A stretch of 42,679 nucleotides of DNA, from assembly GCA_012034655.1 (NCBI GenBank), contig JAAUOZ010000026.1, forward strand, positions 1-42,679. Reading direction: 5' to 3'. This DNA comes from Leptolyngbyaceae cyanobacterium CSU_1_3 (lineage in GTDB: Bacteria > Cyanobacteriota > Cyanobacteriia > Leptolyngbyales > Leptolyngbyaceae). This document shows, piece after piece, positions 1,017-42,417 of the stretch (position 1 is the stretch's first letter; every line of letters begins with the position of its first letter). The notes under the pieces were generated by a model, which saw only the letters and a list, made by a program, of their open reading frames with translations, ran no database searches and had not been told where the DNA came from. Both the position numbers and the translations under genes were made by a program.

Positions 1017-1795
1017 ATGTTGCCAAGGGAAGACCTGCTCAAGGGTGTCGAAAATCGAGAGTGTGTCGTGCGAGTGATTGATCAGGCAGAACAAGCCATC
1101 AAAACCTGGGAAGTCGTGCTAACTGATTTTTTGTCGCCTCCCGAACTCGCCGAAGTGCAGCAGGTTTTTGGGCGGCTGTCAGATGTGCAGATGGTTCCCT
1201 GGGGCGGCTACCCCCAAGCAGAACGGCAACGCCTCGCGATCGCTCGCTCAGAGTTGCCCCTCGACTGCTCGCAGGTTGAAGTGGTTCCCCTCAGCATCGC
1301 GGGCAACTTTTTGTTTGACCCTGCCACCCATCGCGACTTTTTGGGCGCGCTCTTGGGCACGGGCATTGTGCGCGAAAAAGTAGGCGACATCCTTGTTTTG
1401 GGAGAGCGAGGCGCGCAGGCGATCGTCGTGGCAGAGTTGGTTGATTTTTGCAGATGAGTCTCACCCAGGTGCGATCTGTACCCGTCAAGACGCAGCCTAT
1501 CCCGATCGCCGAACTCAAGGTGCGAGAACCCAAAAAGAAAGAACTGACCACCGTAGAAGCCTCCATGCGGCTGGATGCGATCGCCTCGGCGGGGTTTGCC
1601 ATGTCACGCAGCAAAATGGCAGAAATGATTTTGGGGGGCGATGTGCGCGTCAACTGGAAGGAAATCACCTCGACGAGTCACACCGTTAAACCAGGCGATC
1701 TGATTGCCATTCGAGGGAAGGGCCGCGTCGAAGTGGGCGAAATGATGGTCACAAAAAAGGATCGTTATCGAGTTCAACTGACGCGCTTTATCTAG
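1017..1795 (+). CDS. Photosystem II S4-domain protein (YlmH-like RNA-binding S4 protein), split by an apparent 1-bp frameshift near 1445..1450
   Basis: ORFs 1017..1457 and 1448..1795 overlap in different frames. Joined, they give about 260 aa, the length of cyanobacterial PSII S4-domain proteins. The C-terminal S4-like segment is GDVRVNWKEITSTSHTVKPGDLIAIRGKGRV. The frame switch coincides with a T5 run (GATTTTTGCAG). A sixth T would restore VDFLQMSLTQ. Confidence 0.6.
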
Positions 1796-1819
1796 GCAAC
1801 CCTGCGTCAGTAAGCGAAC

Positions 1820-1853
1820 ATTCTCAGCCCGCCCAAAGTGTTGAGAATTTTTG
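1820..1853 (+). terminator. Rho-independent terminator candidate after the S4-domain gene
   Basis: Inverted repeat ATTCTCA(G)..(T)TGAGAAT with a 15-nt loop, followed by TTTTT. It sits 25 nt after the stop codon at 1795. Confidence 0.55.
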
Positions 1854-2197
1854 ACCATTCAATAGTTTTTTTCGGAAACCATATAAACTAACACTACGTA
1901 CTCAGTAGACGCGGTTAGAGATCGAAATGATAGAACGCAATCAAGTTAAAGAATTTAAGAGCATTTGTTTGCGGGGCCTCTACTGAAATTAAGGGTACGG
2001 GTGTTTTTTCGACGATCGTTTGACTTGGGCTACTTGCACAAATCAAGTCAAAAGGAATACATTAATTTCCAATGTTTTCCGGATTTTCTACTGGGGTAGG
2101 GTTGATCCCAAAGAGTCGTGCGATCGGGTGTGTTGCTGAGTGTATCGGGTGGTGTTGGTTCAAATAACCGATGCTCTGAAAGTCTGGAGAGATCACC

Positions 2198-5100
2198 GTG
2201 AACAAAAATTTACTCAAACAGTGGTCAGGGCGAATTGGCTTGATGGCGCTGTTGGCTGTCTTTACGCTGCCGCTTGCCGTAGTGGTTCAGCAGTTGGTGG
2301 CTGAGATCAACATGGGAATGAGCCTGACCCAAAGGGAAAAAGAAGGGCTGGCATACAATCAAACATTGAGAAACCTTTTAGAAAACGTCATTCAACATCG
2401 AAAACTTGCAGATATTTATCTCACGGGCAACGCCGATGATGAGGAAGAATTATTAAAAACTGAACGGACGATCGAGACTAATATTCAACACGTTGAAATC
2501 GTCGAGCGCAAGCTCGGAATCACCCTTAAAACCAAAGAAAATTGGCAGAAAATTCGCTCCCAATGGCAACTGCTCAAATCAGAACTTCAGACCCTATCGG
2601 CTGAAAAAAGCTTTCTGAGCCACACCATTCTCGTCCAAAGCATCATCACCCAAATGATCCATGTGGGTGACACCTCTGAGATGATTCTTGACGCTGAACT
2701 CGACACCTATTATCTGATAGAAGCGCTGATCACCAAACTGCCGACGACGATCGAAGAAACAGCCCAGGCAGGAGAATTGGGTCGGCAAATCGTGGGACGA
2801 AAATCAATCACGCTGGCAGAAGAAGCCCAGATGACCGTTTTTCACCATTTGATCAGCACCCCAACCATGGCGATCGCCAGAAACACCCAGGTAATTTTTG
2901 ACTACAAACCCAAACTCAAAGCAGCCCTACAAACCGAAGTTCAGGCGAGCCTCAACACGACCAACCATTTTCTGAAGCTGATCCAAAAAGACACCCTGGC
3001 TAAGGTTGCCTCTGAGCCAATCAACTATTCCGAAGCGGGTAAAATCGCGATCGCAAACCAATTCAAACTCTACGATGCTATCTTTCCAGCCATCGATCGT
3101 CTTCTGCAAGCTCGTCTCGATAACTATATTTGGCGCAAATATCGGGTGATTACCTTCACCTTCTTGGTGTTGCTGGTCGTCGTTGCCATTTACGTCGCTC
3201 TGGCGCGAAACTGGCAGCAGCGTAAGCGAGTCGAGCAGCGTCTGCGTGTGCAATATGGCATCACCAAGACCCTGGCAGAATCTGACACGCTGGATGAAGC
3301 CTCTGCAAAAATTTTGCAGGCGATTTGTGAAAGCTTGGATTGGGATATAGGCGAATTTTGGACGAGCGATCCTCATCATCAAGTCCTGCGATCGACCCAA
3401 TGCTGGTATGGGCCCCGCCTCAACGTGCCAGAAGCGATTCAACGCCAACCGATAGTTCTCCCTGCGGGCAAGGGGCTAGCTGGGCGCGTATGGCGAGAAG
3501 CACGATCGATCTGGGTTGCAGATCTCAAAAAAGATCCAGATTTTGTCTTGAAGGACAACGACCCCAAAGCAAATCTACACAGCGTCTTTGGTTTCCCAAT
3601 TTTAGAGGGAGAGCGTGTCATCGCTGCCATGTTTTTTTTCAGTCAAGACTTCCAATATCTCGACTCAGAAACGCTGCAAATGATGCTCACCGTTGGGACT
3701 CAAATTGGGCAGTTTATGCGACGCAAACAAGCCGAAATTGCAGTGCGTCATGCAGAAGAACAATATCGCAGCATTTTTGAGAATTCTACAGAAGGCATTT
3801 TTCAAACCACATTAGCAGGGCAATATCTCAGCGTTAACCCCGCACTGGTGAAGATTTATGGCTACGATTCGCCAGAAGATCTGCTCACCAAACTCTCCAG
3901 TATTGAGCAGCAACTCTATGTCGAACCCGATCGTCGCGCCGAATTTTTGAACCTGATTGAGCACCACGATCGCATCGCCAATTTTGAGTCACAGGTCTAT
4001 CACAAAAATGGCAGCACGATTTGGATTTCTGAAAGCGCGGCAGCAGTGCGCGATCGCGATGGCAGCTTATTGTTCTATGTGGGCACGGTGCAAGATATCA
4101 GTGAGCAACGGCGCAGCGCTCAAAAGCTCTACCAGGCCCTCGATTTTGCCGAAACGGCGAGTCGTGCCAAGAGCCAATTTCTCGCCAATATGAGCCACGA
4201 ATTACGCACACCGCTCAATGCAATCATCGGCTACAGCGAAATGCTCCAAGAAGATGCAGGAAGATTTGGGTTTTTCGCAGATTATCCCCGACCTCAGCAA
4301 GATTCGCGGTGCAGGAAAACACCTGCTCAACTTGATCAACGACATTCTTGATATCTCTAAAATCGAAGCAGGCAAAATGGATCTTTACCTGGAGGCTTTT
4401 GATGTGTCAATGCTGATTAGGGAGGTTGAGGCAACCGTGCAGCCGCTTGTCGAAGAGAAACGAAATCAACTTCAAGTGTTTTGTGCAGATAACTTGGGCA
4501 TGATGCACGCAGATCTGACCAAAGTTCGTCAGATTTTACTCAATCTCTTAAGTAACGCTGCGAAGTTTACAGAAAACGGTACGATCACTCTGTCCGTCGA
4601 GCGCAGCGATCGCCCGGTCATCGTCAGCCAAGATCAGCCACTTCAAGCTGTAGGTATGCCTTCAAGTATTTCTCACAGCGCTCCTCCTAGTATTTCTCAT
4701 AGTGTTTCTTCTAGCATTGTTTTTCACGTTTCTGATACTGGAATTGGCATCACCCCAGAACAGAGAAAAATTCTATTTCAGGCATTCACTCAAGCCGATG
4801 CTTCCACGACTCGTAAGTATGGTGGGACGGGGCTGGGGCTGGTGATCAGTCAGAGATTTTGCCAAATGATGGGGGGTGACATTTCCGTCACCAGCGCCCT
4901 GGGGCAAGGCTCAAAGTTTACGGTGCAGTTGCCGATCGCTGTGCCCCATCTCTCCTCTAGCTCAGAAACGCTTCTCCCGCCGCTCGAAAAGTCGCACAAA
5001 AAGCAGTTTACCGTTTTGGTGATTGATGACGACCCCTCAACCCAAGAACTGATGGTGCGCTATTTGCTCAAAGAAGGCCTGCAAGTCGAGACTGCCTCCA

Positions 5101-5762
5101 CCGGAGAAGAAGGCATACAGCGAGCGATCGCGCTACGCCCTGACGCGATCACCCTAGACGTGCTGATGCCCACAATGGACGGCTGGGCGGTGCTGGCAGC
5201 CCTCAAGGCTGATCCTGATCTTGCTGACATTCCGGTGGTGGTGTTGACGATCGTTGACGACAAAAATCTTGGATTTGCCCTCGGTGCATCTGACTACCTG
5301 ACCAAACCGATCGACTACAAACGACTGACCAAAATTCTCAGCAAATACCGCCCAGAAGTTCTAGAACCAGACAAAAATGGACGAGTTCTAATTGTCGAAG
5401 ATGACGACACTACCCGCGATCTATTTCAGCGCACCCTTGCCAAAGAAGGCTGGCTCAGCAGTGTCGCTGACAATGGACGAGTCGCCCTAGAGTGCATTAC
5501 TCACCAAAAACCTGATCTAATTTTGCTAGATCTAATGATGCCAGAAATGAATGGATTCGAGTTTATCAAGCAATTGCAGCAGGTTGCAGCCTGGCGATCG
5601 ATTCCAGTCGTGGTGGTCACGGCGATGAGCCTCACTCCTCTTGATCGCTTACGCCTGAGTGGGTACGTCGAACAAATCCTCCAAAAAGGAGCCTACCGCC
5701 GCGATGAACTGCTCCAAGAAGTCAGAGATTTAGTGCTCACCAACTTCGACCTTGATCCCTAG
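2198..5762 (+). CDS. Hybrid sensor histidine kinase: N-terminal membrane-bounded sensor domain, GAF, PAS, HisKA, HATPase_c and two C-terminal receiver domains. Split by an apparent 1-bp frameshift near 4257..4262.
   Basis: GTG start with GGAGAG 6 nt upstream. There are two TM segments (aa ~13-30 and [19 protein letters not shown]). The H-box is [21 protein letters not shown] 4218..5762 continues the DHp helix in another frame ([21 protein letters not shown]), matching the intact paralog at 7690..7760. G1/G2 boxes are DTGIGI and GGTGLGL. Two REC domains follow (VLVIDDD..D, and LIVEDDD with LDLMMP). A short in-frame SISHS duplication sits in the ATP-lid region. Confidence 0.8.
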
Positions 5763-5982: not shown

Positions 5983-6357
5983 ATGCTATTAGCTATGCCC
6001 AAGATCCTTTTAGTTGAAGATAATGAAATCAATCGAGATATGCTGTCTCGTCGGCTGGCGCGGCGGGGGTTTGATGTCATCGTCGCGATCGACGGCGCAC
6101 AAAGTATTACGATCGCCCAAACCGAACTTCCTGACCTGATTTTGATGGATATGAGCTTGCCCGTCTTAGACGGCTGGGAAGCCACTCGCCAGATCAAGTC
6201 TGCCCTGGCTACCCAAGATATTCCAGTGATTGCGTTGACAGCCCATGCAATGTCGGGCGATCGCGAAAAGTGTATAGATGCGGGGTGCGACGACTACGAC
6301 ACCAAACCCGTCGAGATGCCTCGACTGCTCGAAAAAATTCAGGGACTTTTGGGGTAG
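5983..6357 (+). CDS. Stand-alone CheY-like response regulator (receiver domain only)
   Basis: 124 aa with KILLVEDNEINRDML, the phosphoacceptor context LILMDMSLPVLDGWE, and a conserved T/K (ALTAHA...YDTKP). The start could instead be the internal Met at 5995. Confidence 0.85.
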   Translation: MLLAMPKILLVEDNEINRDMLSRRLARRGFDVIVAIDGAQSITIAQTELPDLILMDMSLPVLDGWEATRQIKSALATQDIPVIALTAHAMSGDREKCIDAGCDDYDTKPVEMPRLLEKIQGLLG

Positions 6358-6361: not shown

Positions 6362-8324
6362 ATGAAGCAGGGAAAAATCAACTATCTGACCCTCCGCAGA
6401 GGAACCTTGCTGATTATTGGCATTACTCTAGTAAGCCTAAACGCCGCCATCTATGGGGTAGCTTCTACGCTGCTATTAGGCGGTTCTATGCGAGCCGAAG
6501 AAAAAGATACGCGCCAGGCGATGAAAGGGGTATTAAATGTTTTTAACCAAAATATTGAGCAATTTAACCTCAACTTTGCCGATTGGTCTTCTTGGGATGA
6601 TGCCTATCAATTTATTCAAGATGGCAACTCAGACTTTATTCAAACCAATCTAATCGAGCCGCAGTTGGCGATGCTGCAAGTCAACTTAATCTTATTTGTC
6701 GATCGCTCTGGCAAGACAGTCTTCAGCACAGGGTTTGATTTAGAGCAAGGGCGAAAAAAGCCGATCCCCCCCAGTTTTAAGCAGCACTTAAAACCGGATG
6801 GGCTGCTCTTGAAGCATAAGTCGATCAATAGCTCAGTGTCAGGGATTGTGATCTTGCCAGAAGGAGCGATGATCATTGCCTCCCGCCCGATCTCCACCAG
6901 TCAGCGTCAGGGAGAAATTCGAGGCAGTTTGATTGTGGGGCGCTATTTGCGCGAAGAAGAAGTCGATCGCCTGACCCAATCTTTGCAGGTTCCTTTGAAG
7001 GTGCATCCGCTCTTGAAGGGCAAAGTTCCGCCAGAGTTGATTAGTTCGTCTACGCGCAAGCTCGAACACGCAGATGCTTCGGGCTTCCTCGAAGGGGTGA
7101 GCGTGACAGTGCGCGCGCAGGATGAAAAACGATCGTCGGTTTGGCATTGCTGCAAGACATCTACGGCAAACCAGCAGTCATACTTCAGGCGCAAAATTCA
7201 CGAGAAATCTATCAGCAGGGTAAAGACGCGATCCGATTTCTGAGTTTGCTGATTGTAATCGTCGGGTTTATATTTGGCGGTGTCACCTTGATCTTGCTAG
7301 AGAAGCTGATTCTCTCTCGGCTGTCGCAACTGAGTCAAGAAGTGAGCAGCATTGGAGAGAGTGGCGACCTATCTCTGCGGGTTTCGGCTCCTGGCAAAGA
7401 TGAGCTTTCCCATCTGGGGTTTACCATCAACACGATGTTAGAAGCGTTAGAGCAATACGAACACAAACTTCAGCGATCGACGGACGAGATCAAGCAGGCT
7501 AAAGAAGTTGCAGAGCAAGCAAACTGGGCTAAGAGCCAATTTCTCGCTAACATGAGCCATGAATTACGCACACCGATGAATGCGATTATTGGCTATAGCG
7601 AAATGCTGCAAGAAGATGCGATCGAATTAGATCAACAAGAGTTTGTTTCAGACTTACAAAAAATTAACAACGCTGGCAGACACCTGTTGGGATTGATCAA
7701 TGACATTCTAGATTTGTCTAAGATCGAAGCTGGAAAATGGATCTCTACCTGGAAAGTTTTGATATTCCCAGCCTGATTCGGGAGGTGGTTAGCACCATTG
7801 CACCATTGGTCAGTCGAAATGGTAATGTGCTGATCGTTGAGTGTGATCAGCAGTTGGGTTCGATGTGTGCCGACCTGACCAAGACACGCCAAAATTTATA
7901 TAACTTACTGAGCAATGCTTGCAAGTTTACGGCCCAGGGAACGATTCGGTTGACGGTAAGCAGACAGGGGCAAAACTTGCCGCCAGGGTTGAAGTCAGAA
8001 GATGCCCCTCAAAGCTCAAAAAAGGCTCAATCTCTGATTATATTCCGCGTCTCTGACACCGGAATCGGCATGACCGCCGAGCAGATCAATCGCGTGTTTC
8101 AAGCGTTTACCCAAGCAGATGCTTCCACAACTCGTAAGTATGGCGGCACAGGCTTGGGGTTGGCGATCGCCCAACGGTTTTGCCTGATGATGGGCGGCAT
8201 GATCACCGTTGAGAGCGAATTTGGTCAAGGTTCTACTTTTACAATGTCTATTCCTGCAAATGTAGAAGCCATCAAAAAATCATCCATTGCACTTACCTTA
8301 GAGAAAATACGATCGCTGTACTGA
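6362..8324 (+). CDS. Sensor histidine kinase with a periplasmic CHASE-like sensor domain, TM2/HAMP, HisKA and HATPase_c. It lies in three frame pieces, with apparent 1-bp frameshifts near 7125..7129 and 7734..7737.
   Basis: ATG at 6362 sits 4 nt after the stop of the receiver gene. TM1 is [18 protein letters not shown]. Piece 2 (7141..7776) carries TM2, a HAMP-like linker and the H-box [18 protein letters not shown]. Piece 3 (7737..8324) carries DTGIGM and GGTGLGL. Both breaks fall in A-runs (GATGAAAAACG and GGAAAATGG). One added A restores [13 protein letters not shown] and [11 protein letters not shown] respectively. Confidence 0.75.
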
Positions 8325-8451
8325 CAAAAAAAGCTTGATACGTCGGCAGAGCTTCAGTCACTTCAGTGCTGATCGACTTCGCTCAGGGCGCAACCGTGAG
8401 CGGGTTGAGCAGAGTCGAAACCAGCAGGTACATTCTTTTGTAGAAATCGCC

Positions 8452-8506
8452 TAAGTTAAGACAAATAAGTTAAGACAATAAGTTAAGACAAATAAGTTAA
8501 GACAAA
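8452..8506. repeat. Tandem array, 4 copies of a 13/14-bp unit TAAGTTAAGACAA(A)
   Basis: Directly visible. It overlaps the stop codon and 3' end of the minus-strand hydrolase gene and lies 130 nt downstream of the plus-strand kinase gene. Confidence 0.85.
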
Positions 8507-9447
8507 TATTTATCTAAAAATGGCAAAATGCCCTCAGCGAGTTCTATTGGATATTCTTCGTGCAATCCGAGAGAGCCTGGCATACGATGAACCTGAACCC
8601 CTGAAAAGTGAGCCAATACTTCAACTTCAGCACGAGACTTAGGCGGCATGTTGTCTCCAATTACCATCATCACTGGCATGGGCAATGACTGAAATAAGTT
8701 AAACCACGCCTCTCGCTTTTTCACCGCATCTAATGCACCCGTGACAAAAGCAGCCGAAGAAAATCGGGCATTTTGACCCTTTGTCGTCTGCCATTTTTGC
8801 TCTATCAGATCTCGTGTAATATTTTTGGCATCTGCAAAAACATGCCGACCATACATAAATCTCAGAAATCCACGGGTCGTGTTCAAGAAATAGAGTGTTT
8901 GCCCAAGCACAGGAGTATTGATTAGAAGCTGTAAAGCTCGATAGCAACGGCGGTGCTCTCCCATCGCAGTCGGCAAAGGGCCGCGCCAAGTTGGGGAAAC
9001 CAATACAACCCACCGCCACGGTGGAGATGAGCTTCGGTATGCTTTGGCTGCCATCTCCATCACGTATCCAGCGGAGTGCCCTGCGGCAACCACCACGATC
9101 GGCTCCGAAAAAACCGTCTGCACAAAGTTGCGGAGAAAAGATTCGTAGAGGGCGGGGGTGCAGTCGATCGCCAACCGCGAAGAGTCGCCAAACCCGACCC
9201 AATCGAGGGCAAAAACCTGATATTTCTGCGCTAGCCGTTCAGCTAGCCCCCGCATTTCTGCGCGACTGGAAACGCTACTCAGGGCAGGTAACAGTAAAAT
9301 CGGCTTGCCCTCGCCCAGCACCTCGTAGGTAGCCGTGATTGATTTCTCCTTCCAACTCCAGTTGTGCTGCTTGACGCTGCCGCCAATTCTGGTTTCTGGA
9401 GCCGCGATCGCATCGGTGGAATGGTTGACCATCACAGTTTTCTTCAT
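8497..9447 (-). CDS. Alpha/beta-fold hydrolase
   Basis: Nucleophile elbow GHSAG within VVVAAGHSAGYV, and typical alpha/beta hydrolase length. The start was chosen at the MKKTVMV Met (9447). The upstream part of the 358-aa ORF looks non-coding, and 9432 is an alternative start. Confidence 0.7.
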   Translation of the reverse strand: MKKTVMVNHSTDAIAAPETRIGGSVKQHNWSWKEKSITATYEVLGEGKPILLLPALSSVSSRAEMRGLAERLAQKYQVFALDWVGFGDSSRLAIDCTPALYESFLRNFVQTVFSEPIVVVAAGHSAGYVMEMAAKAYRSSSPPWRWVVLVSPTWRGPLPTAMGEHRRCYRALQLLINTPVLGQTLYFLNTTRGFLRFMYGRHVFADAKNITRDLIEQKWQTTKGQNARFSSAAFVTGALDAVKKREAWFNLFQSLPMPVMMVIGDNMPPKSRAEVEVLAHFSGVQVHRMPGSLGLHEEYPIELAEGILPFLDKYLS

Positions 9448-12072: not shown

Positions 12073-12375
12073 TTTAACGTCAGGTGTAACGGCTCAGGTG
12101 TCTCAGGGTCAATGTTTTATAGAGAACCCGTGCTGTTTATATTCATACGCTTTTTTTTCAGCCTTGTATGTTGCTTGACGCTCTTTTTGGCGTTGAAATA
12201 GCAGAAAAGTAACTGAATCGGGATGATTGTCAAGGGGTGCGATTCGCAGCTATATGTAGATATATTTACAAATGTGCCTGACTTGTGGCAATTCATTAAG
12301 TCCTATTTTCAATTGCAATATTTCATTCATAAACTGAGGGTGCGCTTAGAAGAAAATTGTTTCGGACTCAATCTT

Positions 12376-15092: not shown

Positions 15093-15100
15093 GAAAGTTT

Positions 15101-18309: not shown

Positions 18310-18341
18310 GTTTTGGCAAAGAAAACGTAACTACTCAAGTC

Positions 18342-22870: not shown

Positions 22871-22871
22871 T

Positions 22872-32600: not shown

Positions 32601-34152
32601 CCCGTTGATCTAACTCTCGATAGGTGAGTTGCTGATCTTGACATACGATCGCGATCGCATCGGGAGTTTGTTCTGCCTGCGCTTCAAACTGTTGATGTAA
32701 ACAGGCAGGGAGGGGGGCAGCCTGGAGATCATGCCCGCCTAGCAGTGCTTGTTGTTCTGTGAGGGTGAGCAGTGGCAAATGTGAAATAGACTGATCCGGG
32801 TTGGCAATGATTCCGGTCAGCACAGTGTGAAAGTGCCCCATGAGGCGCTCGATCGTATCTGCATCAAACAAATCGCTATTGTATTCAACACAGCCCATCA
32901 CTCCGTTTGGCACTTCTGCTAATTGCAGCAGCAGATCAAACTTGGCAGTGCCATTGTGGATGGCTTGAAAATCTAACTGCATATCAAGGGACGATTCTAC
33001 CTCGACAGATGCCCCTGGCAAAAACTCAAGCATGACCTGAAAGAAAGGCTGCTGACCAGCTTGGCGCTCTGGGTGCAATCTTTCTACCAGCGTTTGAAAG
33101 GGCACATCTTGATGGGCATAGGCGGCGATCGTCACCTCTCGTTCTCGCTGCAACAACTCCCGAAAACTCGGAGAGCCAGATAGATCAGTTCGCAGGACGA
33201 TCGTATTAACAAAGCAGCCGATTAGGGGTTCAAGTTCCGATCGCGTCCGCCCTGCTGTCACGGTGGCGACAGGAATATCATTTTGGGCTGTGTAGCGATG
33301 CAATAGGGTTTTGAAGGCTGCCATCAAGGTCATAAACAGGGTCACACCTTCTTGGCGAGAGACTGCCTTGAGTTGATCCGTCACGTCTTGTGACAGGCTG
33401 ACACTATGCCGTGCGCCGCGCAAGCTTCTGACTGCTGGATGAGGTCGATCGGTGGGCAGTTGCAGAACGGGGACATGTTCAAGTTGTTGTTTCCAGTACT
33501 CAATTTGAGGTTCGAGCACATCACTTTCTAGCCATTGCCGTTGCCAATCTGCAAAGTCAGCATATTGAATGGTGAGATCGGCCAGGGGTGAAGGTTTGCC
33601 AGCACAAAAGGCTTCATAGAGTGCTGCCAATTCTTTGAGAAAGACATTAAACAGAGAAACCCCGTCATAAATAATGTGGTGCAGGGTGAGGTAGAGGCGG
33701 TGATGGGTGGCATCTAGGTGTACCAGTGTTGCCCGTAGCAAAGGAGCTTGAGCCAGATCAAAGGGGCGCTCACCTTGAGCAGTCGCAAGTCGCAATGCTT
33801 CGCTTTCTCGATCGTGGGGTGGCAACGGTTGAAGGTTGACCACAGAGAGTTTGAAGGAGGACGGTGGGTGAATGATTTGCAGGGGTTCACCGTCGATCGC
33901 TACAAACGTGGTGCGCCAAACGGCATGGCGACGAAGAATTTCGTTGAAGCTGTGCTCTAGTGCTGCGATGTCGAGAGAACCTGTGAGGTGCAATGTTACT
34001 GTGTCGTTGTAATAAGGACTGTTGGGTTCTAGTTGGGCCAGTAGCCACATTTGCTGTTGAGCCAGAGATGTAGGAAAAACCAAAACCTCTTCTTCTATAG
34101 CAGAAGAGATATTTTTAGCAATGTCTAAGGGCTTGGGAAGATGCTGAACCAT
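29698..34152 (-). CDS. Non-ribosomal peptide synthetase, terminal module C-A-T-R (condensation, adenylation, PCP, NAD(P)H-dependent thioester reductase)
   Basis: C domain HHIIYDG. A-domain core motifs LTYRELDQRAN, YTSGSTGKPKG, FDFSVWE, NMYGITE, GELHIGGAGLARGY, YKSGDL and GRIDNQVKIRGFRIE. PCP LGGNSL. The R domain has GATGFLG and the YSQSK (YxxxK) catalytic pair. 1,484 aa with no competing frame. Confidence 0.9.
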   Translation of the reverse strand: MVQHLPKPLDIAKNISSAIEEEVLVFPTSLAQQQMWLLAQLEPNSPYYNDTVTLHLTGSLDIAALEHSFNEILRRHAVWRTTFVAIDGEPLQIIHPPSSFKLSVVNLQPLPPHDRESEALRLATAQGERPFDLAQAPLLRATLVHLDATHHRLYLTLHHIIYDGVSLFNVFLKELAALYEAFCAGKPSPLADLTIQYADFADWQRQWLESDVLEPQIEYWKQQLEHVPVLQLPTDRPHPAVRSLRGARHSVSLSQDVTDQLKAVSRQEGVTLFMTLMAAFKTLLHRYTAQNDIPVATVTAGRTRSELEPLIGCFVNTIVLRTDLSGSPSFRELLQREREVTIAAYAHQDVPFQTLVERLHPERQAGQQPFFQVMLEFLPGASVEVESSLDMQLDFQAIHNGTAKFDLLLQLAEVPNGVMGCVEYNSDLFDADTIERLMGHFHTVLTGIIANPDQSISHLPLLTLTEQQALLGGHDLQAAPLPACLHQQFEAQAEQTPDAIAIVCQDQQLTYRELDQRANQLAHHLQNLGVKPDSLVGLCVDRSLNLVVAILGILKAGGAYVPLDPASPPERLAGIVEDMNAALVVTQSDLQQRLPKTSAQAVCLDTDGDTIAALPTTSPGRILNADTLAYVIYTSGSTGKPKGVLINHSNVMRLFSSTQAWFQFNKHDVWTLFHSYAFDFSVWELWGALLHGGRLVIVPHCVGRSPDSFYKLLCSEKVTVLNQTPSAFRQLMRTEELSGVSDDLALRFVIFGGEALELQSLKSWFDRHGDRTPQLVNMYGITETTVHVTYRPITIADLNAGSAIGQPIPDLQVYLLDQNLQLVPIGVPGEMHIGGAGLARGYLNRPELTAERFIENPFCPKTRLYKSGDLARRLANGDIEYLGRIDNQVKIRGFRIELGDVESAIQHYSNVSECVVIVREDIPTDKRLVAYLTSKGTLATSDLRRFLQQKLPEYMIPSAFVVLETLPLTINGKVDHRALPLPDARPELESTFIAPRTLMEQQVAHFWSAVLGIKDLGIHDDFFYLGGNSLLAAHLISYIREEFQVELPVRLLFEYPTIEGLAQTLEALQRDGVDSVAALTKTLDLKGDAVLASDIYPSGPAIVPVSNPQNVFLTGATGFLGAFLVHELLQQTQATLYCLVRCSSSSDGAVRLQQTLEQYSLWDERYRDRIVPIPGDLSQPLLGVSPEQFNLLADQIDTIYHNGALVNFVKPYSLMKAANVLGTQEILKLACQSQTKTVHYISTDSVFGATGYFNRMSALYEDDDLDPSEDILFLGYSQSKWVAEKLMHTARSRGIPVTIFRPGLILGHSQTGITNTKDYASRLIKGCIQLGCYPDLPNKHEYFVPIDYASKAIVHLSRQEQSLGQIFHVVNPHPQKFLEFFQQINDYGYFVEKLPYDQWKDRLLQHTRYSQENALYPLVPMQVEKMYQELTLPELYQYHPYLDCQNTSAALTDTGIVCPPVNDELLQVYFSYFIQNGFLEAPRS

Positions 34153-34479
34153 TGGATTATTTTCCTATGTGTGAAGAAGAAGTCAAAACGGGTTAGCAGG
34201 CTCGATCGCTCTAACGCCAAAGGGGACAAAGGGGCCATTTGTAGGTAGCCTGAGATCTTGCACCAGTCGCAACACCTATCTTGCAATCCATGCCTGCAAT
34301 TCATGCTGGGCTAATCGTTAAAGTTCGTTGAAACGGGCTACAATCTTCAGCAGATTAAGCTTCTAACCCATTTCATATTTGGGCGTTGCATGTATAGAGG
34401 GATGAAATGGAATGGAATGGATTGTTGAGAAAGATGCAAGATCTCAGTCAAGCTTTAGCCAAACTTTAGGCAGGCTTTT

Positions 34480-37400
34480 CTACAATTCTTCTGCCGTCTT
34501 AACGGACTTATGAATGGGCAGAGTGTTGTATGTTTGCGTGTTCTTTTCAGGAAGTGTTGCGATGTCAGCAGCGTGTTCTTTTCTAGATCTATCCGATTCT
34601 TCTGGCAATGTAAATACCATTGCAGAAGTTTTTTCTGCGAACTCTTTTTTAGATTTACCTGCCAACTTCGCTTGTATTGAAGATAGCGTCATCCGTCGTG
34701 CTTCGCGCACTACAGAAACTAAAGCAGGCATCTGAGGTTGGGTGCTCATCTGGTATTGCTCGATCGCTTCTGCAAATTTAGCCACGGTTGGAGTTGAAAA
34801 CAACGTATGTAGAGGCAATTGCACCTCAAAGACTTCATTGACTCTGGCCATCACTTGAGTTGCTAAGAGTGAGTGTCCTCCTAGCTCTAAAAACGGATCG
34901 TGAATGCCCACCCGATCGACTCCTAGTAGAGCAGACCAAATCGCAGCAATCTTCTCCTGAGCAGGAGTTTGAGGCGCGATATATTCAACCTTGAAGTCCG
35001 ATCGATTCTCTTCTGGAATCGGTAAAGAACGGCGATCTATTTTTCCATTTGGCGTAAGCGGCAATTGCTCTAGAAAGACAAACGCTGAAGGAACCATATA
35101 TTCTGGTAGCTGACGGCTCAAGAACTGACGCAATTCGCTTAACGGGCTGGGTGTAGTCGTGACCAAATAGGCAACTAGGCGCTTGTTGCCAGGGACATCT
35201 TCTCGCGCTATGACCACACAGTCTTGTACTGTGGAATGTTGGCGCAGAGACGATTCGATTTCGCCTAACTCAATTCGGAAGCCTCGCAGTTTGACCTGGT
35301 GATCAATGCGTCCCAAATATTCAATGCTACCATCGGGCAAATAGCGGGCTAAGTCACCTGTTTTATAGAGCCGATCGCTATCCCCAAAAGGATGGTCAAT
35401 AAATCGTTCCGCCGTCAGATCGGGGCGATTGAGATAGCCACGGGCCAAGCCAATACCGCCGATGTGCAATTCTCCAGCGACCCCGATCGGAACGGGATGA
35501 AGTTGAGCATCAAGCAGATGAATTTGCATATTTGCGATCGCACGGCCAATCGGAACAATGCGACGATTGGCCGTGCGCTGACATGCCCAAAATGTCACAT
35601 CAACCGCCGCTTCGGTCGGGCCATAGAGATTGTGCAATTCAGCGTTGAGACGATCGAAGCAGCGTTCTTGCAATTCAAAGGGTAAAGCTTCTCCGCTACA
35701 AATCACTCGTTTGAGGCACTGGCAACCCTCTAGATTGGGTTCTTGCAAAAATGCCTGGAGCATCGACGGGACAAAGTGCAGCGTTGTAATCTGCTGCTCT
35801 GCGATCAACTGAGCAAGATAGGCACTATCTTTATGTCCTTCAGGTCGGGCAACAACCAGCCGCGCCCCCGTCATCAACGTCCAAAAGAACTCCCAGACAG
35901 AGACATCAAACCCAAAGGGCGTTTTTTGCAGAACGCGATCGCAATCCGACAATTGATAAGCATCTTGCATCCACAACAATCGATTGCAGATGCCCTTGTG
36001 GGTATTCATTGCTCCTTTAGGTTTGCCCGTCGAACCGGAGGTATAAATCACATAGGCAAGATGATCAGGGGTCACAGGGCTGAGCGGAGTTTCTACACTA
36101 GATTGAGCAATCGTCTGCCAGTCTGTATCAAGGCAAATCACCTGTGCCTGAGGTGGCAACTGCGGTAATAGCGACGATTGAGTCAGCAACACTGGAACTT
36201 GAGCATCTGCCATCATAAACGCCAACCGCTCTGGTGGGTAGCTCGGATCAAGGGGAACATATGCACCTCCTGCTTTGAGGATTCCGAGAAGCCCAATCAC
36301 CATTTCTAGCGATCGCTCTATACAGATTCCCACCAAACCATCGGGAGTGATTCCTAGGCTTTGTAAGTGGTTGGCTAATTGATTCGCCCGTTGATTTAAT
36401 TCTTGATAGGTTAGTTGCTCTTCGCAAGCTTGCACAGCAATTGCATCCGGTGTTCTCAAGGCTTGAGCTTCAATCAACTGATGCAGGCAAATCTCTGGAT
36501 ATTCCACATGGGTATTGTTCCAGGTGGCAAGTTGCTGTTGTTCTGCTGTGGTGAGTAATGGCAACTCAGTAAGACGGTGTTCTGGGTGAGCTACAATTCC
36601 TTCTAGTAAGGTTTGAAAATGCTCAGCCAGACGAGCGATCGTATCTGCATCAAATAAGTCAGTGCTATATTCAATGCGCCCGATCAGTCCCTCTGGTCGT
36701 TCATCCAGTTCGAGATACAAATCACATTCTGTTGTTCCGGTGTCTACGTCTTGTTGGCTCAACTGCCACCGAGAATCCGTTTCTACCCAGGGGGGAGCCA
36801 GCACAAACAATACCTGAAACCACGATCGCGGCTGCGAAGTCTTCTGGGTTAATCGTAATGCCTCTACTACCTTTTGAAACGGCGTATCTTGATGGGCATA
36901 GGCATCTAACGTCACCGATCGAACACGTCGCAATAGCTCTCGAAAGCTTGGTGCTCCGGATAAATCAGTCCGTATGATCAGCGTGTTGATAAAACATCCG
37001 ATCAAAGGCTCAATGTCCGATCGATTACGCCCTGCCGTCACCGTAGCAACGGGAATATCATCCTGTGCGGTATAGCGATGCAACAGGGTTTTGAAGGCTG
37101 ACATCAACGTGACATACAATGTCACCCCTTCTTGGCGAGACAGTGCTTTGAGTTGCTCTGTCAATTCTTTGGATAAGCTCAAGCAATGCTGAGATCCTTT
37201 GAGACTTGCGATCGCGGGGTAAGGTCGATCGGTCGGCAATTGCAGTGTCGGGAGGCTTGCGAGTTGTTTTGTCCAATAATCGAGTTGAGGTTGCAGTGTC
37301 TCAGACCGCAACTCTTGCTGCTGCCACGCTGCAAAATCAGCATATTGAATGGTGAGATCGGCCAGGGGTGAAGGCCGCCCAGCACAAAACGCATCATAGA

Positions 37401-39879
37401 GTGCTGATAGTTCTTTGAGAAACACACTATAAAGAGATACACCATCATAGATGATGTGATGCAAGGTGAGATAGAGGCGATGGTCTGTTTCGCTGAGTTG
37501 AACGAGCGTAGCTCGCAACAAGGGGGTCTGAGTCAGATCAAAGGGGCGTTGAGCTTGGGCCGTTGCTAGTTGTAGGGCAGTTTGTGCTTGCTGATCTGGA
37601 AGGTATGTTCTTAGATCTACAACGGACAATGGGAAGGGGAAATGCGGCTGAATGACCTGGTGCGGGATGCCTGCGATCGCTACAAATTTTGTGCGCCAAA
37701 TCCCATGACGGCGAATGATTTCATTCAAGCTTTGCTCTAGTGCAGCAACATTGAGCGAACCTGTAAATTGCAGTGTCACCGCGTCGTTGTAGCAAGGCGT
37801 ATCAGGCTCTAGTTGCGCCAGCAGCCACATTTGTTGTTGCGAAAAGGAAAGCGGTAGCGGCTGATCTAGAGCGACGGGCTGAATGGGTTGAGAACCTTTC
37901 CCTCCATCGCTTGTTGCGATCGCGTGGGCAAATTCTGCGATCGTCGAAGCTGCCAACACAGTCTGCAACGGCACTTGCACCTGGAGAACCTCACAGACTC
38001 GCGCAATCACCTGAGTTGCCAGGAGGGAATGTCCTCCCAGTTCCAAGAACGAGTCGTGAATGCCAATGCCTTCAATGCCCAATACGGTTGTCCAAATTGC
38101 GGCAATTTGCTGCTCAAGTTGAGTGCGAGGTGCAACATAGGGAGCCGACACTTCAGGGCGACTCTCATTGGGAATGGGGAGTGCTCTACGATCGATTTTC
38201 CCATTCGGTGTAAGCGGCAATTGTTCCAGCAATACAAATGCTGAAGGAAGCATATATTCTGGCAACGACTGGCTCAAAAATTGACGACATTCTCCCACGG
38301 TTAAGGCGGTTTCTGACGACATGGCCAAATATGCAACTAGCCGCTTATTACCGGGTATGTCTTCGCGAATCATCACCACACATTCACGAATGTCTGGGTG
38401 TTGACGCAAAGCAGATTCGATTTCGCCAAGCTCAATCCGAAAGCCGCGCAGCTTCACTTGATGGTCGAGCCGTCCCAAATACTCGATCGCGCCATTGGGC
38501 AAACACCGCACCAGGTCTCCCGTTTTATACAGACGAGTTCCCAGATGCCAGGGGTTAGAGATAAACCGTTCAGCCGTTAGTTCAGGGCGATTGAGATATT
38601 CTCTCGCTAGCCCAACTCCACCGATATAGAGTTCTCCGGCGACTCCCGCAGCAACAGGCTGAAGGTGAGAATCTAAGACATAACATTCTGTATTAGAAAG
38701 AGGACGGCCGATCGGAAGGGTGGTGGCATCTTCTGGAACCGTTTCAATCAAATGCCAGGTGGCAAAGGTTGTACTTTCGGTTGGCCCATACACATGCAGT
38801 AATCGCGCTGGTGGCTTATGTCGCAGCACTTCGCGCACCCATTTTGGATCAACCGCTTCCCCCCCAAACAATACCTGCCGAAGCGAGTGAAACGCAGACG
38901 GAACTTCACGGGCGACTTGATTGAAGAGAGCAGTCGTCAGAAATAGGGTGGTGATGTTTTGCGCTTGCAGAAAGTTTGCAAATGTTCTAGGAGTGAGGGC
39001 AATGTCTTGGCTAACGATAACCAATCGCGCTCCATTAACCAATGCACCCCAAATCTCAAATGTTGCTGCATCAAAAGAACAATTAGATACTTGAGCGACA
39101 ACATCTGTAGGGTTGAGATCGATGTAGTTTGTATCCATTACTAATCGATGCACAGCTTTATGTTCTACAGCAACCCCTTTGGGCGTGCCTGTAGAACCAG
39201 AGGTATAAATGACATAGATTAAGTCATCTGCATTGCCAGAAGTGCTAGTGTTATTGACTAGATTTTCGGCTGACTGCTGTGTAACAGTTGACCAATCTGT
39301 ATCTAAACACAGCACTTGAGCCTTGTGTTCAGGAAGCTTTGACAACAGCGCCGTCTGAGTCAGCAGCACAGACACTTGAGCATCTGCCACCATAAACGCC
39401 AACCGCTCTGTTGGGTAGCTCGGATCAAGCGGAACATAGGCTCCCCCTGCCTTGAGAATTCCGAGAAGTCCAATCACCATGTCTAGCGATCGCTCTACAC
39501 AGATCCCGACAAATTGATTGGGGGCTACTCCCAGCGATCGTAGGTGACTCGCTAATTGATTGGCGCGTTGATTCAAATGGTGATAGGTCAATTGCTGATC
39601 TGCAAACTCCACCGCGATCGCGTCTGGTGTTTTTTGGGCTTGAGCTTCAAACAACCGATGAATCGCCGTACCGTGAAACTCAGCGATCGGGAATTCACGG
39701 ATCGAAAATTCACTGATCGGGAATTCACTGATCGGGAACTCACCGATCGGGAACTCACCGATCGGGAATTCACGGAGTTGCTTTCTGAGCTTCTCATCTC
39801 TAGCAGCTTCATACTTGAGGTTTGGGTATGCATTCCAAAGACGCATTTCTACAGAGCCTTCAGGGATTCGTTTCTCCAT
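34480..39879 (-). CDS. Non-ribosomal peptide synthetase with two modules, A-T-C-A-T, an N-terminal repeat extension and a ~100-aa C-terminal tail that may be a docking region
   Basis: Two full A domains (YTSGSTGTPKG then YTSGSTGKPKG, with the NTHKGICNRLLW motif in the second), two PCPs (LGGHSL x2), one C domain (HHIIYDG) and no E or TE domain. 1,799 aa. The start codon is uncertain (ATG at 39879 or the internal MRLW). Confidence 0.9.
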   Translation of the reverse strand: MEKRIPEGSVEMRLWNAYPNLKYEAARDEKLRKQLREFPIGEFPIGEFPISEFPISEFSIREFPIAEFHGTAIHRLFEAQAQKTPDAIAVEFADQQLTYHHLNQRANQLASHLRSLGVAPNQFVGICVERSLDMVIGLLGILKAGGAYVPLDPSYPTERLAFMVADAQVSVLLTQTALLSKLPEHKAQVLCLDTDWSTVTQQSAENLVNNTSTSGNADDLIYVIYTSGSTGTPKGVAVEHKAVHRLVMDTNYIDLNPTDVVAQVSNCSFDAATFEIWGALVNGARLVIVSQDIALTPRTFANFLQAQNITTLFLTTALFNQVAREVPSAFHSLRQVLFGGEAVDPKWVREVLRHKPPARLLHVYGPTESTTFATWHLIETVPEDATTLPIGRPLSNTECYVLDSHLQPVAAGVAGELYIGGVGLAREYLNRPELTAERFISNPWHLGTRLYKTGDLVRCLPNGAIEYLGRLDHQVKLRGFRIELGEIESALRQHPDIRECVVMIREDIPGNKRLVAYLAMSSETALTVGECRQFLSQSLPEYMLPSAFVLLEQLPLTPNGKIDRRALPIPNESRPEVSAPYVAPRTQLEQQIAAIWTTVLGIEGIGIHDSFLELGGHSLLATQVIARVCEVLQVQVPLQTVLAASTIAEFAHAIATSDGGKGSQPIQPVALDQPLPLSFSQQQMWLLAQLEPDTPCYNDAVTLQFTGSLNVAALEQSLNEIIRRHGIWRTKFVAIAGIPHQVIQPHFPFPLSVVDLRTYLPDQQAQTALQLATAQAQRPFDLTQTPLLRATLVQLSETDHRLYLTLHHIIYDGVSLYSVFLKELSALYDAFCAGRPSPLADLTIQYADFAAWQQQELRSETLQPQLDYWTKQLASLPTLQLPTDRPYPAIASLKGSQHCLSLSKELTEQLKALSRQEGVTLYVTLMSAFKTLLHRYTAQDDIPVATVTAGRNRSDIEPLIGCFINTLIIRTDLSGAPSFRELLRRVRSVTLDAYAHQDTPFQKVVEALRLTQKTSQPRSWFQVLFVLAPPWVETDSRWQLSQQDVDTGTTECDLYLELDERPEGLIGRIEYSTDLFDADTIARLAEHFQTLLEGIVAHPEHRLTELPLLTTAEQQQLATWNNTHVEYPEICLHQLIEAQALRTPDAIAVQACEEQLTYQELNQRANQLANHLQSLGITPDGLVGICIERSLEMVIGLLGILKAGGAYVPLDPSYPPERLAFMMADAQVPVLLTQSSLLPQLPPQAQVICLDTDWQTIAQSSVETPLSPVTPDHLAYVIYTSGSTGKPKGAMNTHKGICNRLLWMQDAYQLSDCDRVLQKTPFGFDVSVWEFFWTLMTGARLVVARPEGHKDSAYLAQLIAEQQITTLHFVPSMLQAFLQEPNLEGCQCLKRVICSGEALPFELQERCFDRLNAELHNLYGPTEAAVDVTFWACQRTANRRIVPIGRAIANMQIHLLDAQLHPVPIGVAGELHIGGIGLARGYLNRPDLTAERFIDHPFGDSDRLYKTGDLARYLPDGSIEYLGRIDHQVKLRGFRIELGEIESSLRQHSTVQDCVVIAREDVPGNKRLVAYLVTTTPSPLSELRQFLSRQLPEYMVPSAFVFLEQLPLTPNGKIDRRSLPIPEENRSDFKVEYIAPQTPAQEKIAAIWSALLGVDRVGIHDPFLELGGHSLLATQVMARVNEVFEVQLPLHTLFSTPTVAKFAEAIEQYQMSTQPQMPALVSVVREARRMTLSSIQAKLAGKSKKEFAEKTSAMVFTLPEESDRSRKEHAADIATLPEKNTQTYNTLPIHKSVKTAEEL
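39685..39774 (-). repeat. In-frame 15-bp tandem repeat x6 (GATCGGGAATTCAC[G/T]) encoding (EFPIG/EFPIS)n at the NRPS N-terminus
   Basis: Directly visible. Translation on the minus strand gives REFPIGEFPIGEFPISEFPISEFSIREFPIAEF, immediately before the first adenylation domain. Confidence 0.85.
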
Positions 39880-40360: not shown

Positions 40361-40365
40361 GGATT

Positions 40366-40459
40366 TGCCCTCACCCCAACCCTCTCCCAAGTTGGGAGAG
40401 GGAGCAGGAGTCCGGTTCCTCTTCTCCCATTTTGGGAGAAGGGGTTAGGGGATGAGGGT
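40366..40459. repeat. Compound G/C-rich palindromic element of the same family as 18342..18394, probably a terminator for the downstream minus-strand kinase gene
   Basis: Perfect inner hairpin CCCTCTCCC-AAGTT-GGGAGAGGG, a second hairpin CCTCTTCTCCC-ATTTT-GGGAGAAGGGG, and flanking GCCCTCACCCC..GGGGATGAGGGTC arms. It lies 20 nt beyond the stop of gene 40481..42417. Confidence 0.5.
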
Positions 40460-40480
40460 CTTAAGTTTAATTCCACCTAC

Positions 40481-42417
40481 CTACTTAGGGGTTTCATCGC
40501 TTGATTTGATTCGCTGCAAAGGAATCTGAATCATAAACTCAGCGCCTTGTCCGATCTTCGATCGACACAGTAACTTTCCTTTGTGCCTTTCCACAACAAT
40601 TTGATAGCTGATAGATAAACCCAACCCAGTGCCTTTGCCCACAGATTTGGTGGTAAAGAAGGGGTCAAATAGCTTAGAGCAAACGGCCTCACTCATGCCC
40701 ATGCCATTATCAGCAATGCGAATCGTTACCCACTGATTGGTAGTGACTTCAGTTTGGACGTGAATTGTATTGGGGTTGGTTTTGATTTCCTCAAAAGTGC
40801 GCTGTTGGTTATATTCTTCAAAAGCGTCAATAGCGTTACTCAAGATGTTCATGAACACCTGATTTAGAGGCCCCGCATAGCACTCGACTAAGGGCAATTG
40901 CCCATATTCTTTAATCACCTGAATCTCTGGACGTTCTGCGTTTGCTTTCAGACGATTATTTAAAATGACGATCGTGCTATCAATACCCTCATGGAGATCG
41001 ACCGATTTAACTTCGGCTTCATCTAGTCGAGAAAAGTTCCGCAGAGACATCACAATTTCACGAATGCGATCGTGCCCAAATACATCGACTGGACAATCTT
41101 CGCGAGATCTTCTACGAGAAAATCAACATCAATTCTGTCAATTTCGGTTTGAAGCTCGGCGGATGGGTTGGGGCAGTCTTGTTGATAAAGCTGTAGGAGT
41201 CTGAGCAAATCTTCAGCATATTCTTTAACATAGCTGAGGTTGCCATGAATAAAGTTAATGGGGTTATTAATTTCGTGGGCAACTCCTGCCACCATTTGCC
41301 CAATGCTAGACATTTTCTCGCTCTGAATCAGACTCAATTGAGTCTGCTCTAGCTCTTGCAGCATTTGCTCAAGCCAGCTATTTTTCTCACTGATTTCTTG
41401 CGTTCTAGCTTCAACTTTCTTCTCTAAGGTATGACTATAGACCTCTAGTTTTGCATTCGCATCGATTTGTTCGTGTAGCAAATCTTTGACTTTTCTAATC
41501 AGTTCATTTAAGACGATAGTTAATTCACCCACTTCATCTTGGCTAGTAATAGGCGCTTGTAGATCAAAATTTTTGGTGTGGATGACTTGCTGAGCAATAT
41601 CAGCAGTTCTTTGAATAGGACGGGCGATCGCTCGACTAGCATAGAGGGAGAAGATAAGGGCGATCGTCATCGAAAATAATAGGCTAGTCGAAATGATTTG
41701 GATTCGCAATTCTATAGCAGCTTCTATAGCTTTCTCTGCTTCCTCGTACTCGTCGGTCGCTACGTCCAGCAGCTTATTAACCTGCTCTGAAAATTGATCA
41801 AACTCAACAACTAGTTCATCATTATTCGTCGCTATCAACTGTTCTTGAGCCGCTTTTCTCTTTTCTGCGGGCAGGCTGTTCGGGTTGAGTTGCTGAAACT
41901 GTTTTTCTACTTTCTGTAAACGTAGATCTAAGCTCTCATAGGTTTGGGATAACTTGTCGAGAACCGCTTGCTCAATGTCTGACTCTTCAATGTCGGGGTT
42001 TATATACCCCTGGGTAGATTTAAACTCTGCCCATATCCGACGGGTTGAAGCCAAATCCTCTAAAAAATGACCATACTCTATCTGCCAGAGTGAGGGCTTT
42101 ATCATCGACAGCACGAGTTGTTTTTGGTGCAGATGGGTTTCTAGCACGTCACTCTCCAAGCGGTAGACCAGTCCGATCTCCTGAACGGCATCTTCTGCTG
42201 CTCTGTAGGCCGCTTTTTGGTAATAATCTGCAATCAGAAAGCCCGTAGTAGTTCCTACAACAGCCACTCCGATCGCCAATCCATAGCCCAGGCTAATTTT
42301 TTGACCCACCCTCAAGCGGCTAAACCTTTGCCCCCAACCCTTTGCAAAAGGCAGTGAGTTTTGAGAAGAACTCTTGACGGCTGGGCTGTTTGGCTCCGGT
42401 GCTTGATTCGTTGACAT
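40481..42417 (-). CDS. Membrane sensor histidine kinase (TM, extracytoplasmic helical sensor, TM, HAMP-like, HisKA, HATPase_c). Apparent 1-bp frameshift near 41066..41076.
   Basis: Start chosen at MSTNQAPEP. The extended 5' part of ORF 41050..42573 lacks coding character. TM helices are ISLGYGLAIGVAVVGTTTGFLIA and IISTSLLFSMTIALIFSLY. The H-box is AHEINNPINFIHGN. The C-terminal ORF 40481..41053 (DNGMGM, GKGTGLGL) continues in another frame. One added G gives ...GTDRIREIVMSLRNFSRL, which parallels the paralogous module at about 28800..29641. Confidence 0.7.

Follow-up and report, generated by a model that had tools for sequence, protein, structure and literature searches.

Ion Torrent sequencing uses flow chemistry and shares with pyrosequencing a weakness at homopolymers, whose lengths it miscalls mostly as too short. 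Real interruptions of genes are described as well. In pseudogene-rich genomes at an early stage of reductive evolution ('Nostoc azollae', Sodalis), many genes are interrupted and frameshifts are prominent among the lesions. At phase-variable contingency loci, a one-base change in a run switches the reading frame; the tract usually has at least 7 bases, lies near the gene start and belongs to a surface or restriction-modification gene. In some bacteria, transcriptional slippage can occur even at short A/T runs.

We analysed here a contig of the Leptolyngbyaceae cyanobacterium CSU_1_3 (JAAUOZ010000026.1; 42,679 nucleotides, hereafter the window) in which nine genes are split by single-base frameshifts. 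These breaks are very probably indel errors in an Ion Torrent metagenome consensus and not gene decay. The proteins of the window match exactly NJR49179-NJR49191 of CSU_1_3. This bin can be linked by its sample code and by the format of its name (the study has bins named like CSU_1_8) to a survey of South African stromatolites, whose reads came from an IonTorrent Ion P1.1.17 chip and were put together by SPAdes 3.12 in its --iontorrent mode (bioRxiv 10.1101/818625). According to the same source, the codes CSU and SU stand for Schoenmakerskop Upper in January and April 2018, and homopolymeric runs are a problem that comes with the IonTorrent chemistry itself. Through the names of the bin and the samples, the window is thus traced to a flow-based platform, as expected of an artefact. 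A literature search on SRR14117741, JAAUUY and GCA_012030915 found nothing.

Frame breaks and intact genes in the window

The open reading frame list, the translations and a permissible-interval analysis confirmed 11 frame breaks, at or near the places where a first-pass annotation made from the sequence alone had put them. That annotation spoke of eleven interrupted genes; the 11 breaks are present, but they fall in nine genes, because two sites lie in the CHASE4 kinase and two in the REC-PAS kinase. A base is missing at 10 sites and in excess at one. Runs of at least 4 A or T represent 5.7% of the bases of the split genes and contain 7 of the 11 sites, in runs of 4-6 bases (binomial P = 5e-7). 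The enrichment in A/T homopolymers is thus real, but "almost all" was too strong, since four sites lie elsewhere: 4259 (an extra G), 11127 and 41072 (single missing bases), and 25963-69 (a base missing from AA or GGGG). For the same reason, the statement that adding one base to an A or T run restores a conserved motif holds only in part: ten sites do need an added base, 4259 needs a removal, and four sites are outside A/T runs. The G-run reported near 4258 as the sole exception exists as a GG at 4259-4260, but 11127, 25963-69 and 41072 are exceptions too. Two of the four sites outside A/T runs have no clear homopolymer at all, a context less typical of flow-chemistry error.

At each site, a one-base repair yields a full-length conserved protein. 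The repaired junctions are spanned by Pfam domains and orthologues run through the same points unbroken; for the S4 and TIR-TPR genes, the exact repaired protein is present elsewhere. No in-frame stop, larger deletion or insertion element was found in the split genes, whose lesions are single-base frameshifts only, and no downstream piece closes before its natural stop. Nothing in the window matched Rfam.

The ylmH/S4-domain gene (1017-1795, plus strand) is one T short in a run of five T at 1445-1449. A contig of the Logan assembly of run SRR14117741 (L083) has six T at this position, is otherwise identical to the window over 266-3655 and encodes an unbroken YlmH/S4 protein of 259 amino acids; in the repaired protein the Pfam YlmH_RBD domain (residues 94-165) covers residue 142, where the junction lies. 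In the gene of the GAF-PAS hybrid histidine kinase (2198-5762, plus strand), GG stands for a single G at 4259-4260, and the frame offset shows a surplus of one base in the window. With one G removed, the protein matches the motif LQE[ED]A[EQ]DLG of more than 45 homologues and a full-length Pfam HisKA domain (residues 657-725) spans the junction. Dropping a T from the run of five at 4271-75 was considered as an alternative repair and rejected; it gives QEDAGRFGF where homologues have A[EQ]DLG.

Both sites of the CHASE4-HAMP histidine kinase gene (6362-8324, plus strand) are one A short. At the first, a run of five A at 7125-7129, frame analysis requires one added base, and the Logan contig L166 (window 7120-8467) has six A, 5 nt from its end. 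At the second, a run of four A at 7734-7737, an added A produces a sequence of the same form as the paralogue at 4218-5762, and the Pfam HisKA domain (residues 390-458) ends at the repaired junction; here L166 has the same four A as the window. The Ion_trans_2/TrkA_N/TrkA_C potassium channel gene (10985-12057, minus strand) had been thought to break in an A/T run at 11144. Alignment of homologues, whose motif at this point is THP[G/D/S]Q, places the break instead at about 11127, where a base is missing from a glycine codon, G[G]T (11127-11128). Among the 120 homologues listed, most have 349-361 amino acids and all have TrkA_C, the best match being a protein of Phormidesmis priestleyi (86% identical, 357 amino acids). 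TrkA_C (residues 269-336) spans the junction of the repaired protein. The break at 11127 is also present in a Logan contig (L001).

In the single-domain response regulator gene (14658-15094, plus strand), one A is missing from a run of five at 14868-14872; the repaired protein has 145 amino acids and a Pfam Response_reg match (positions 1-110 of the 111 of the model) that spans the junction. The REC-PAS-HisKA-HATPase-REC kinase gene (15101-17003, plus strand) lacks one T in each of two runs of four, at 16565-16568 and 16930-16933. Orthologues with 59, 57 and 54% identity are unbroken through F.[VLI][FY]LP[AV] at the first, and repair of the second yields RFLSKPFTVKELL, where orthologues have an unbroken FL[QSN]KP[YF]T. 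A metagenome scan with the repaired kinase returned orthologues of at most 59% identity, which can be used for continuity but not for base-level comparison. The Logan contig L082 does not differ from the window at 14868, 16565 or 16930.

On the minus strand, the TIR-TPR gene (18452-20094) is one base short in a run of six A (T on the plus strand) at 19608-19613. The corresponding contig of SU_3_3, a second bin from the same pool, has seven bases there, and the repaired prediction of 547 amino acids is identical residue for residue to NJK53180.1 of that bin. The large Ser/Thr-kinase-AAA_16-GAF-histidine-kinase gene (24150-29641, plus strand) lacks a base in AA (25963-64) or GGGG (25966-69). One base must be added within a permissible interval of 25919-25991, and three homologues (29-34% identity) align across the site without a gap.

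The HAMP sensor histidine kinase gene (40481-42417, minus strand) lacks one base at 41072-41073, outside any A/T run. This base is the sole frame-breaking difference from a JGI orthologue (L167; 91% nucleotide identity over 2015 bp), which reads GGGCAGCGATCGC where the window has GGGCA-CGATCGC, a non-homopolymer context; homologues have SMYLG[ST]DRIREIV at this point. In comparison with L167, dN/dS in this one gene is 0.14 downstream of the break and 0.26 upstream. Exact look-ups gave no match for window fragments 1017-1457, 5983-6357, 5995-6357, 4218-5759, 25931/25964-29641, 40481-41053/41050 and 41053-42417, nor for two repaired proteins, the response regulator and one variant of the potassium channel. 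At 4259, 25963-69 and 41072, a second assembly is therefore missing.

Two nonribosomal peptide synthetase (NRPS) genes on the minus strand (29698-39879) and a GAF-PAS-GAF histidine kinase gene of about 2.4 kb (12223-14661, plus strand) are intact, as the first-pass annotation had seen for the NRPS genes and for the kinase, which it called a cyanobacteriochrome. The NRPS genes have the domain orders A-T-C-A-T (34480-39879) and C-A-T-reductase (29698-34152), with full-length Pfam Condensation, AMP-binding, PP-binding and NAD_binding_4 models; the kinase is a single open reading frame with complete Pfam domains. That annotation had left lower homopolymer content as a possible reason for the sparing of the NRPS genes. 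The density of A/T runs of at least 4 bases is indeed 6.0 per kb there and 12.8 per kb in the split genes, and this lower density partly explains the absence of breaks. Nevertheless, 2.6-4.0 breaks would be expected, and even at 2.6 the probability of finding none is about 0.075, so that the sparing remains marginally unlikely after homopolymer content is allowed for. For the GAF-PAS-GAF kinase, the same error model predicts about 1.0 break, with a probability of about 0.37 of none. A scan of species-representative genomes with this intact kinase revealed no close relative (best match 62% over a partial alignment), which made comparison with a finished genome impossible.

Other assemblies of the same population

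The SU_3_3 bin was sampled four months after CSU_1_3. Two of its contigs (L084 and L165) correspond to window positions 16946-21532 and 21568-25880, and over these 8.9 kb the two bins differ by 16 single-base indels and by 1 substitution. The TIR-TPR gene is broken in the window and intact in SU_3_3; conversely, the urate hydroxylase gene hpxO, a prohibitin gene, a small GlsB/YeaQ-like gene and the Ser/Thr kinase gene are broken in SU_3_3 and intact in the window. The SU_3_3 contigs also have non-homopolymer indels at 21429 and 20617, as well as four deletions clustered in 32 bp (25545-25576), a pattern that looks like a region of low-quality reads and not like switching.

Over 13.3 kb, Logan contigs of SRR14117741 align to the window free of substitutions and depart from it only in run length, at 1445, 7125 and 9211. 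At 9211 and 7125, the alternative run lengths are seen at contig tips, an indirect hint that run lengths may be mixed in the reads. This near-identity, as opposed to the many differences from SU_3_3, suggests that SRR14117741 is the CSU read set. An intact version thus exists in another assembly for 3 of the 11 sites (1445, 7125 and 19608-13), whereas five (7734-37, 11127, 14868-72, 16565-68 and 16930-33) are the same in the Logan contigs and in the window. Breaks shared in this way would reflect a systematic error of the reads or, with lower probability, be real. Assemblies of one organism therefore differ by indels and hardly by substitutions, with errors on both sides.

Origin of the breaks and comparison with known systems

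The preference of the first-pass annotation for systematic sequencing or assembly error over pseudogenisation is borne out by the Ion Torrent platform, by the almost exclusively single-base indel differences between assemblies and by the intact runs at 1445, 7125 and 19608-13. The other eight sites are probably errors of the same kind, judging from the conservation of the repaired proteins and by analogy with the proven sites. In flow sequencing, the signal of each nucleotide flow scales with how many identical bases are added, so that run lengths are miscalled. Coverage would be modest for a single organism of a stromatolite community, and some miscalls could then win the consensus, the IonHammer correction of SPAdes may clear only part of them, and each surviving error would split a gene into two overlapping open reading frames.

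Some or all of the frameshifts could alternatively be real and very recent, for example in a mismatch-repair-deficient lineage that loses signalling genes by slippage and keeps its NRPS genes by selection. The five sites at which the SPAdes contig agrees with the Logan assembly, the mostly sensory or regulatory nature of the genes hit and the absence of NRPS breaks where 2.6-4.0 are expected all fit this proposal. We nevertheless consider it very unlikely. The platform is known for exactly this type of error; a mutator lineage would also gain base substitutions, and samples taken four months apart differ by the indels and single substitution described above, with different genes broken. In addition, the split genes are free of nonsense mutations, larger deletions and insertion elements, the housekeeping gene ylmH is hit as well, yet intact in another assembly, and selection past the break at 41072 is not relaxed in the one gene for which dN/dS was compared (0.14). 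A narrower version, in which the five Logan-shared frameshifts and perhaps the three uncovered ones are real and the January 2018 population was rapidly losing two-component and ion-channel genes while keeping its NRPS genes, has a chance that is fainter still; if true, it would suggest that a natural lineage is deficient in mismatch repair.

The run-length differences at 1445, 7125, 9211 and 19608-13 could in principle fit phase-variable contingency tracts, or a real mixture of run lengths sampled differently by the assemblies. Such an origin is highly improbable for tracts of just 4-6 bases, situated anywhere in the genes, some of them within HisKA, REC and TrkA_C domains, and in genes for cytoplasmic signalling and housekeeping; four sites are moreover outside A/T runs, and SU_3_3 has its own non-homopolymer indels and deletion cluster. 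Least credible of all is programmed ribosomal frameshifting or transcriptional slippage at the runs, which we practically discount. Slippage at short runs has precedents, but nothing specific in support of recoding was found here, the orthologues examined for the potassium channel, the REC-PAS kinase, the hybrid kinase, the sensor kinase and the S4 protein are all encoded in a single frame, and three of the genes stay in one frame in SU_3_3 or Logan contigs. To our knowledge, there is no precedent for as many as eleven independent recoding sites within 42 kb.

Read as sequencing errors, the breaks provide a practical warning about data quality and no basis for biological claims. Consensus errors break roughly two in five genes on this contig, and SU_3_3 fares worse still, at about 1.6 errors per kb over the part that was compared. 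Since such errors split genes, any count of genes or pseudogenes, comparison of signalling repertoires or inventory of domains that relies on these Ion Torrent bins will be biased against long genes rich in A/T runs. The accession series from NJR49183 to NJR49185 can accommodate only one protein for four genes, which would fit the removal of frameshifted genes as pseudogenes from the deposited annotation.

Compared with described systems, the window resembles phase-variable loci in that one-base changes in runs switch the frame. It differs from them in that its tracts are too short and not near gene starts, non-homopolymer sites are hit too, and the genes are neither surface nor restriction-modification genes. 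With pseudogene-rich genomes it shares the many interrupted genes and the prominence of frameshifts, but nonsense mutations, deletions and insertion elements are absent, downstream regions are open and, from dN/dS in one gene, under purifying selection, and the lesions at 1445, 7125 and 19608-13 are missing from another assembly of the same population. Indel error of flow sequencing (Ion Torrent, 454) accounts less well for the 4 of 11 sites outside A/T runs, two of them without a clear homopolymer, and for the 5 sites reproduced by a second assembler. It nevertheless matches the window in the documented platform, the single-base size of the changes, the bias towards missing bases, the enrichment in A/T runs, the disagreement between assemblies of the same organism and the restoration of conserved proteins by repair.

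Sites and signature of the frame breaks

From the ORF list and translations, nine genes are each divided into neighbouring overlapping ORFs in differing frames. The breaks number eleven, a figure that the first-pass annotation had given for the genes themselves. For each junction, we computed the interval that must contain the frame change and whether the window lacks a base there or has one in excess. One base must be added at 10 of the 11 junctions, as had been proposed for all of them; the exception is the hybrid kinase, where a base is in surplus near 4259 and where more than 45 homologues with the motif LQE[ED]A[EQ]DLG fit only after one G of the GG at 4259-4260 is deleted. An A/T run is the sole plausible culprit at seven sites (T5, 1445-1449; A5, 7125-7129; A4, 7734-7737; A5, 14868-14872; T4, 16565-16568; T4, 16930-16933; T6, 19608-19613). 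Since A/T runs of at least 4 bases make up only 5.7% of the split-gene bases, this is far above chance (P = 5e-7). The claim that almost all sites lie in A/T homopolymers holds for these seven; the other four, including that of the hybrid kinase, differ. K+ channel homologues (120 listed), mostly 349-361 aa long, read THP[G/D/S]Q, so the missing base falls in a Gly codon around 11127, about 17 nt away from the run previously blamed. The Ser/Thr kinase lacks a base within AA or GGGG at 25963-25969, and in the last sensor kinase, at 41072/73, a 91% identical orthologue reads GGGCAGCGATCGC where the window reads GGGCA-CGATCGC. The hexamer CGATCG adjoins several frameshift sites (7125, 19608 and 41072).

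The repairs yield real conserved proteins at every site. Pfam domains cross the repaired junctions of the S4 protein (YlmH_RBD), the K+ channel (TrkA_C) and the small response regulator (Response_reg); HisKA becomes full-length across that of the hybrid kinase and extends as far as the junction in the repaired CHASE4 kinase. Both REC-PAS kinase junctions are uninterrupted in orthologues at 54-59% identity, as is the Ser/Thr kinase junction in three distant homologues. Translations revealed no in-frame stops or larger deletions in any split gene, and every downstream piece is open as far as its natural stop.

Comparison with other assemblies

By exact-sequence look-up, the window proteins are NJR49179 to NJR49191 in the bin Leptolyngbyaceae cyanobacterium CSU_1_3, whose 42679-bp contig is the window. 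Waterworth et al. (bioRxiv 10.1101/818625) use the codes CSU and SU, and bin names like CSU_1_8, in their study of peritidal stromatolites, where CSU is Schoenmakerskop Upper in January 2018 and SU is that pool in April 2018; the tie between accession and paper is based on these bin and sample names. The libraries were run on an IonTorrent Ion P1.1.17 chip, assembled with SPAdes 3.12 (--iontorrent --only-assembler) and binned with Autometa, and the authors themselves describe trouble with homopolymeric runs as inherent to the chemistry (bioRxiv 10.1101/818625).

The sister bin SU_3_3 (GCA_012030915.1) differs from the window by six single-base indels and zero substitutions over 16946-21532 (contig L084), and by ten indels and one substitution over 21568-25880 (L165). 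Judged by reading frames, both assemblies contain errors. The TIR-TPR gene is broken in the window, whereas the SU_3_3 run has seven bases, and the repaired protein (547 aa) matches NJK53180.1 of SU_3_3 at every residue. Conversely, hpxO (two deletions), the prohibitin gene and a gene for a 90-aa GlsB/YeaQ/YmgE-like small membrane protein (20563-20835, + strand; readily overlooked) are broken in SU_3_3 and intact in the window; the Ser/Thr kinase lies in at least three pieces in SU_3_3, at places where the window keeps the frame. Within 32 bp of L165 (3978-4009; window 25545-25576) there are four single-base deletions and one substitution, in what looks like a low-quality read region passed into the consensus. 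At intergenic position 20458 the window has TT and SU_3_3 TTT, with no reading frame to judge by.

Logan contigs, a separate assembly of run SRR14117741, cover 13.3 kb of the window with zero substitutions and run-length differences only. They have T6 at 1445, which leaves the YlmH/S4 gene intact (259 aa), and A6 at 7125, close to a contig tip; at 9211, also at a tip, they have T4 against T5 in the window, which is the intact version. Calls at 7734-37, 11127, 14868-72, 16565-68 and 16930-33 are common to both. Because the window is much nearer to these contigs than to SU_3_3, SRR14117741 is most likely the CSU read set handled by a different assembly program, in which case the shared calls provide no independent confirmation. 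One Logan contig (L001) stops, as a k=31 assembly would, inside a perfect 12-nt tandem repeat (four copies, 12733-12780) encoding (PAKD)4 within the GAF-PAS kinase.

Origin of the frame breaks

The frame breaks are almost certainly errors in the consensus produced by a flow-chemistry assembly. There is documentation for the platform; the signature fits, with bases mostly missing and enrichment in runs; two samples from a single population show hardly any differences but indels, and different genes are broken in each; 3 of the 11 sites are intact elsewhere; and a conserved protein is regained with every repair. On these grounds the systematic sequencing or assembly error proposed in the first-pass annotation is upheld.

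At the five sites where the Logan contigs agree with the window, and at the three that no second assembly covers, a real and recent mutation retains a very small probability. In the last sensor kinase, comparison with a JGI orthologue gave 176 substitutions, one in-frame 3-nt indel and one frame-breaking base, with a dN/dS of 0.14 downstream of the break and 0.26 upstream. Relaxed selection was thus not found downstream, in the part left untranslated if the frameshift is real, so the break in this one gene is either an artefact or extremely recent. Tract lengths, gene types and single-frame orthologues all speak against phase variation and programmed recoding.

Unbroken genes and other features of the window

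Both NRPS genes (34480-39879 and 29698-34152, - strand) are unbroken, as had been noted, with full-length domain models for A-T-C-A-T and C-A-T-reductase; this order suggests a tripeptide with reductive release. A 15-nt tandem repeat (6.3 copies, 39680-39773) lies in the part of the upstream gene that encodes its first 100 residues. Were the breaks uniform over coding sequence, the NRPS genes should contain 4.0 of them (P(0) = 0.018). The NRPS genes are poorer than the split genes in A/T runs of at least 4 (6.0 versus 12.8 per kb) and, in the count proposed earlier, of at least 5 (1.4 versus 4.1). A model that takes per-run error rates from elsewhere in the window, and adds a uniform rate to allow for the four sites outside A/T runs, lowers the expectation to 2.6 (P(0) = 0.075). 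Lower homopolymer content, raised earlier as a possible cause, therefore accounts for some of this difference, and what is left over counts as weak, post-hoc evidence. For the 2.4-kb GAF-PAS kinase (12223-14661, + strand), which is also intact, about 1.0 break is expected (P(0) ~0.37), so its lack of breaks calls for no explanation.

The window also carries an intact three-gene urate-degradation set (21231-23372): FAD-dependent urate hydroxylase HpxO (21231-22394), transthyretin-like 5-hydroxyisourate hydrolase (22487-22870) and OHCU decarboxylase (22875-23372). Intergenic tandem repeats lie at 218-295 (period 11 nt), 8452-8508 (14 nt) and 42633-42677 (18 nt); the contig ends inside the last, which probably accounts for the assembly break. 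The HIP1 octamer GCGATCGC occurs in 37 copies over the whole window, against about 0.6 expected, an abundance typical of many cyanobacteria.
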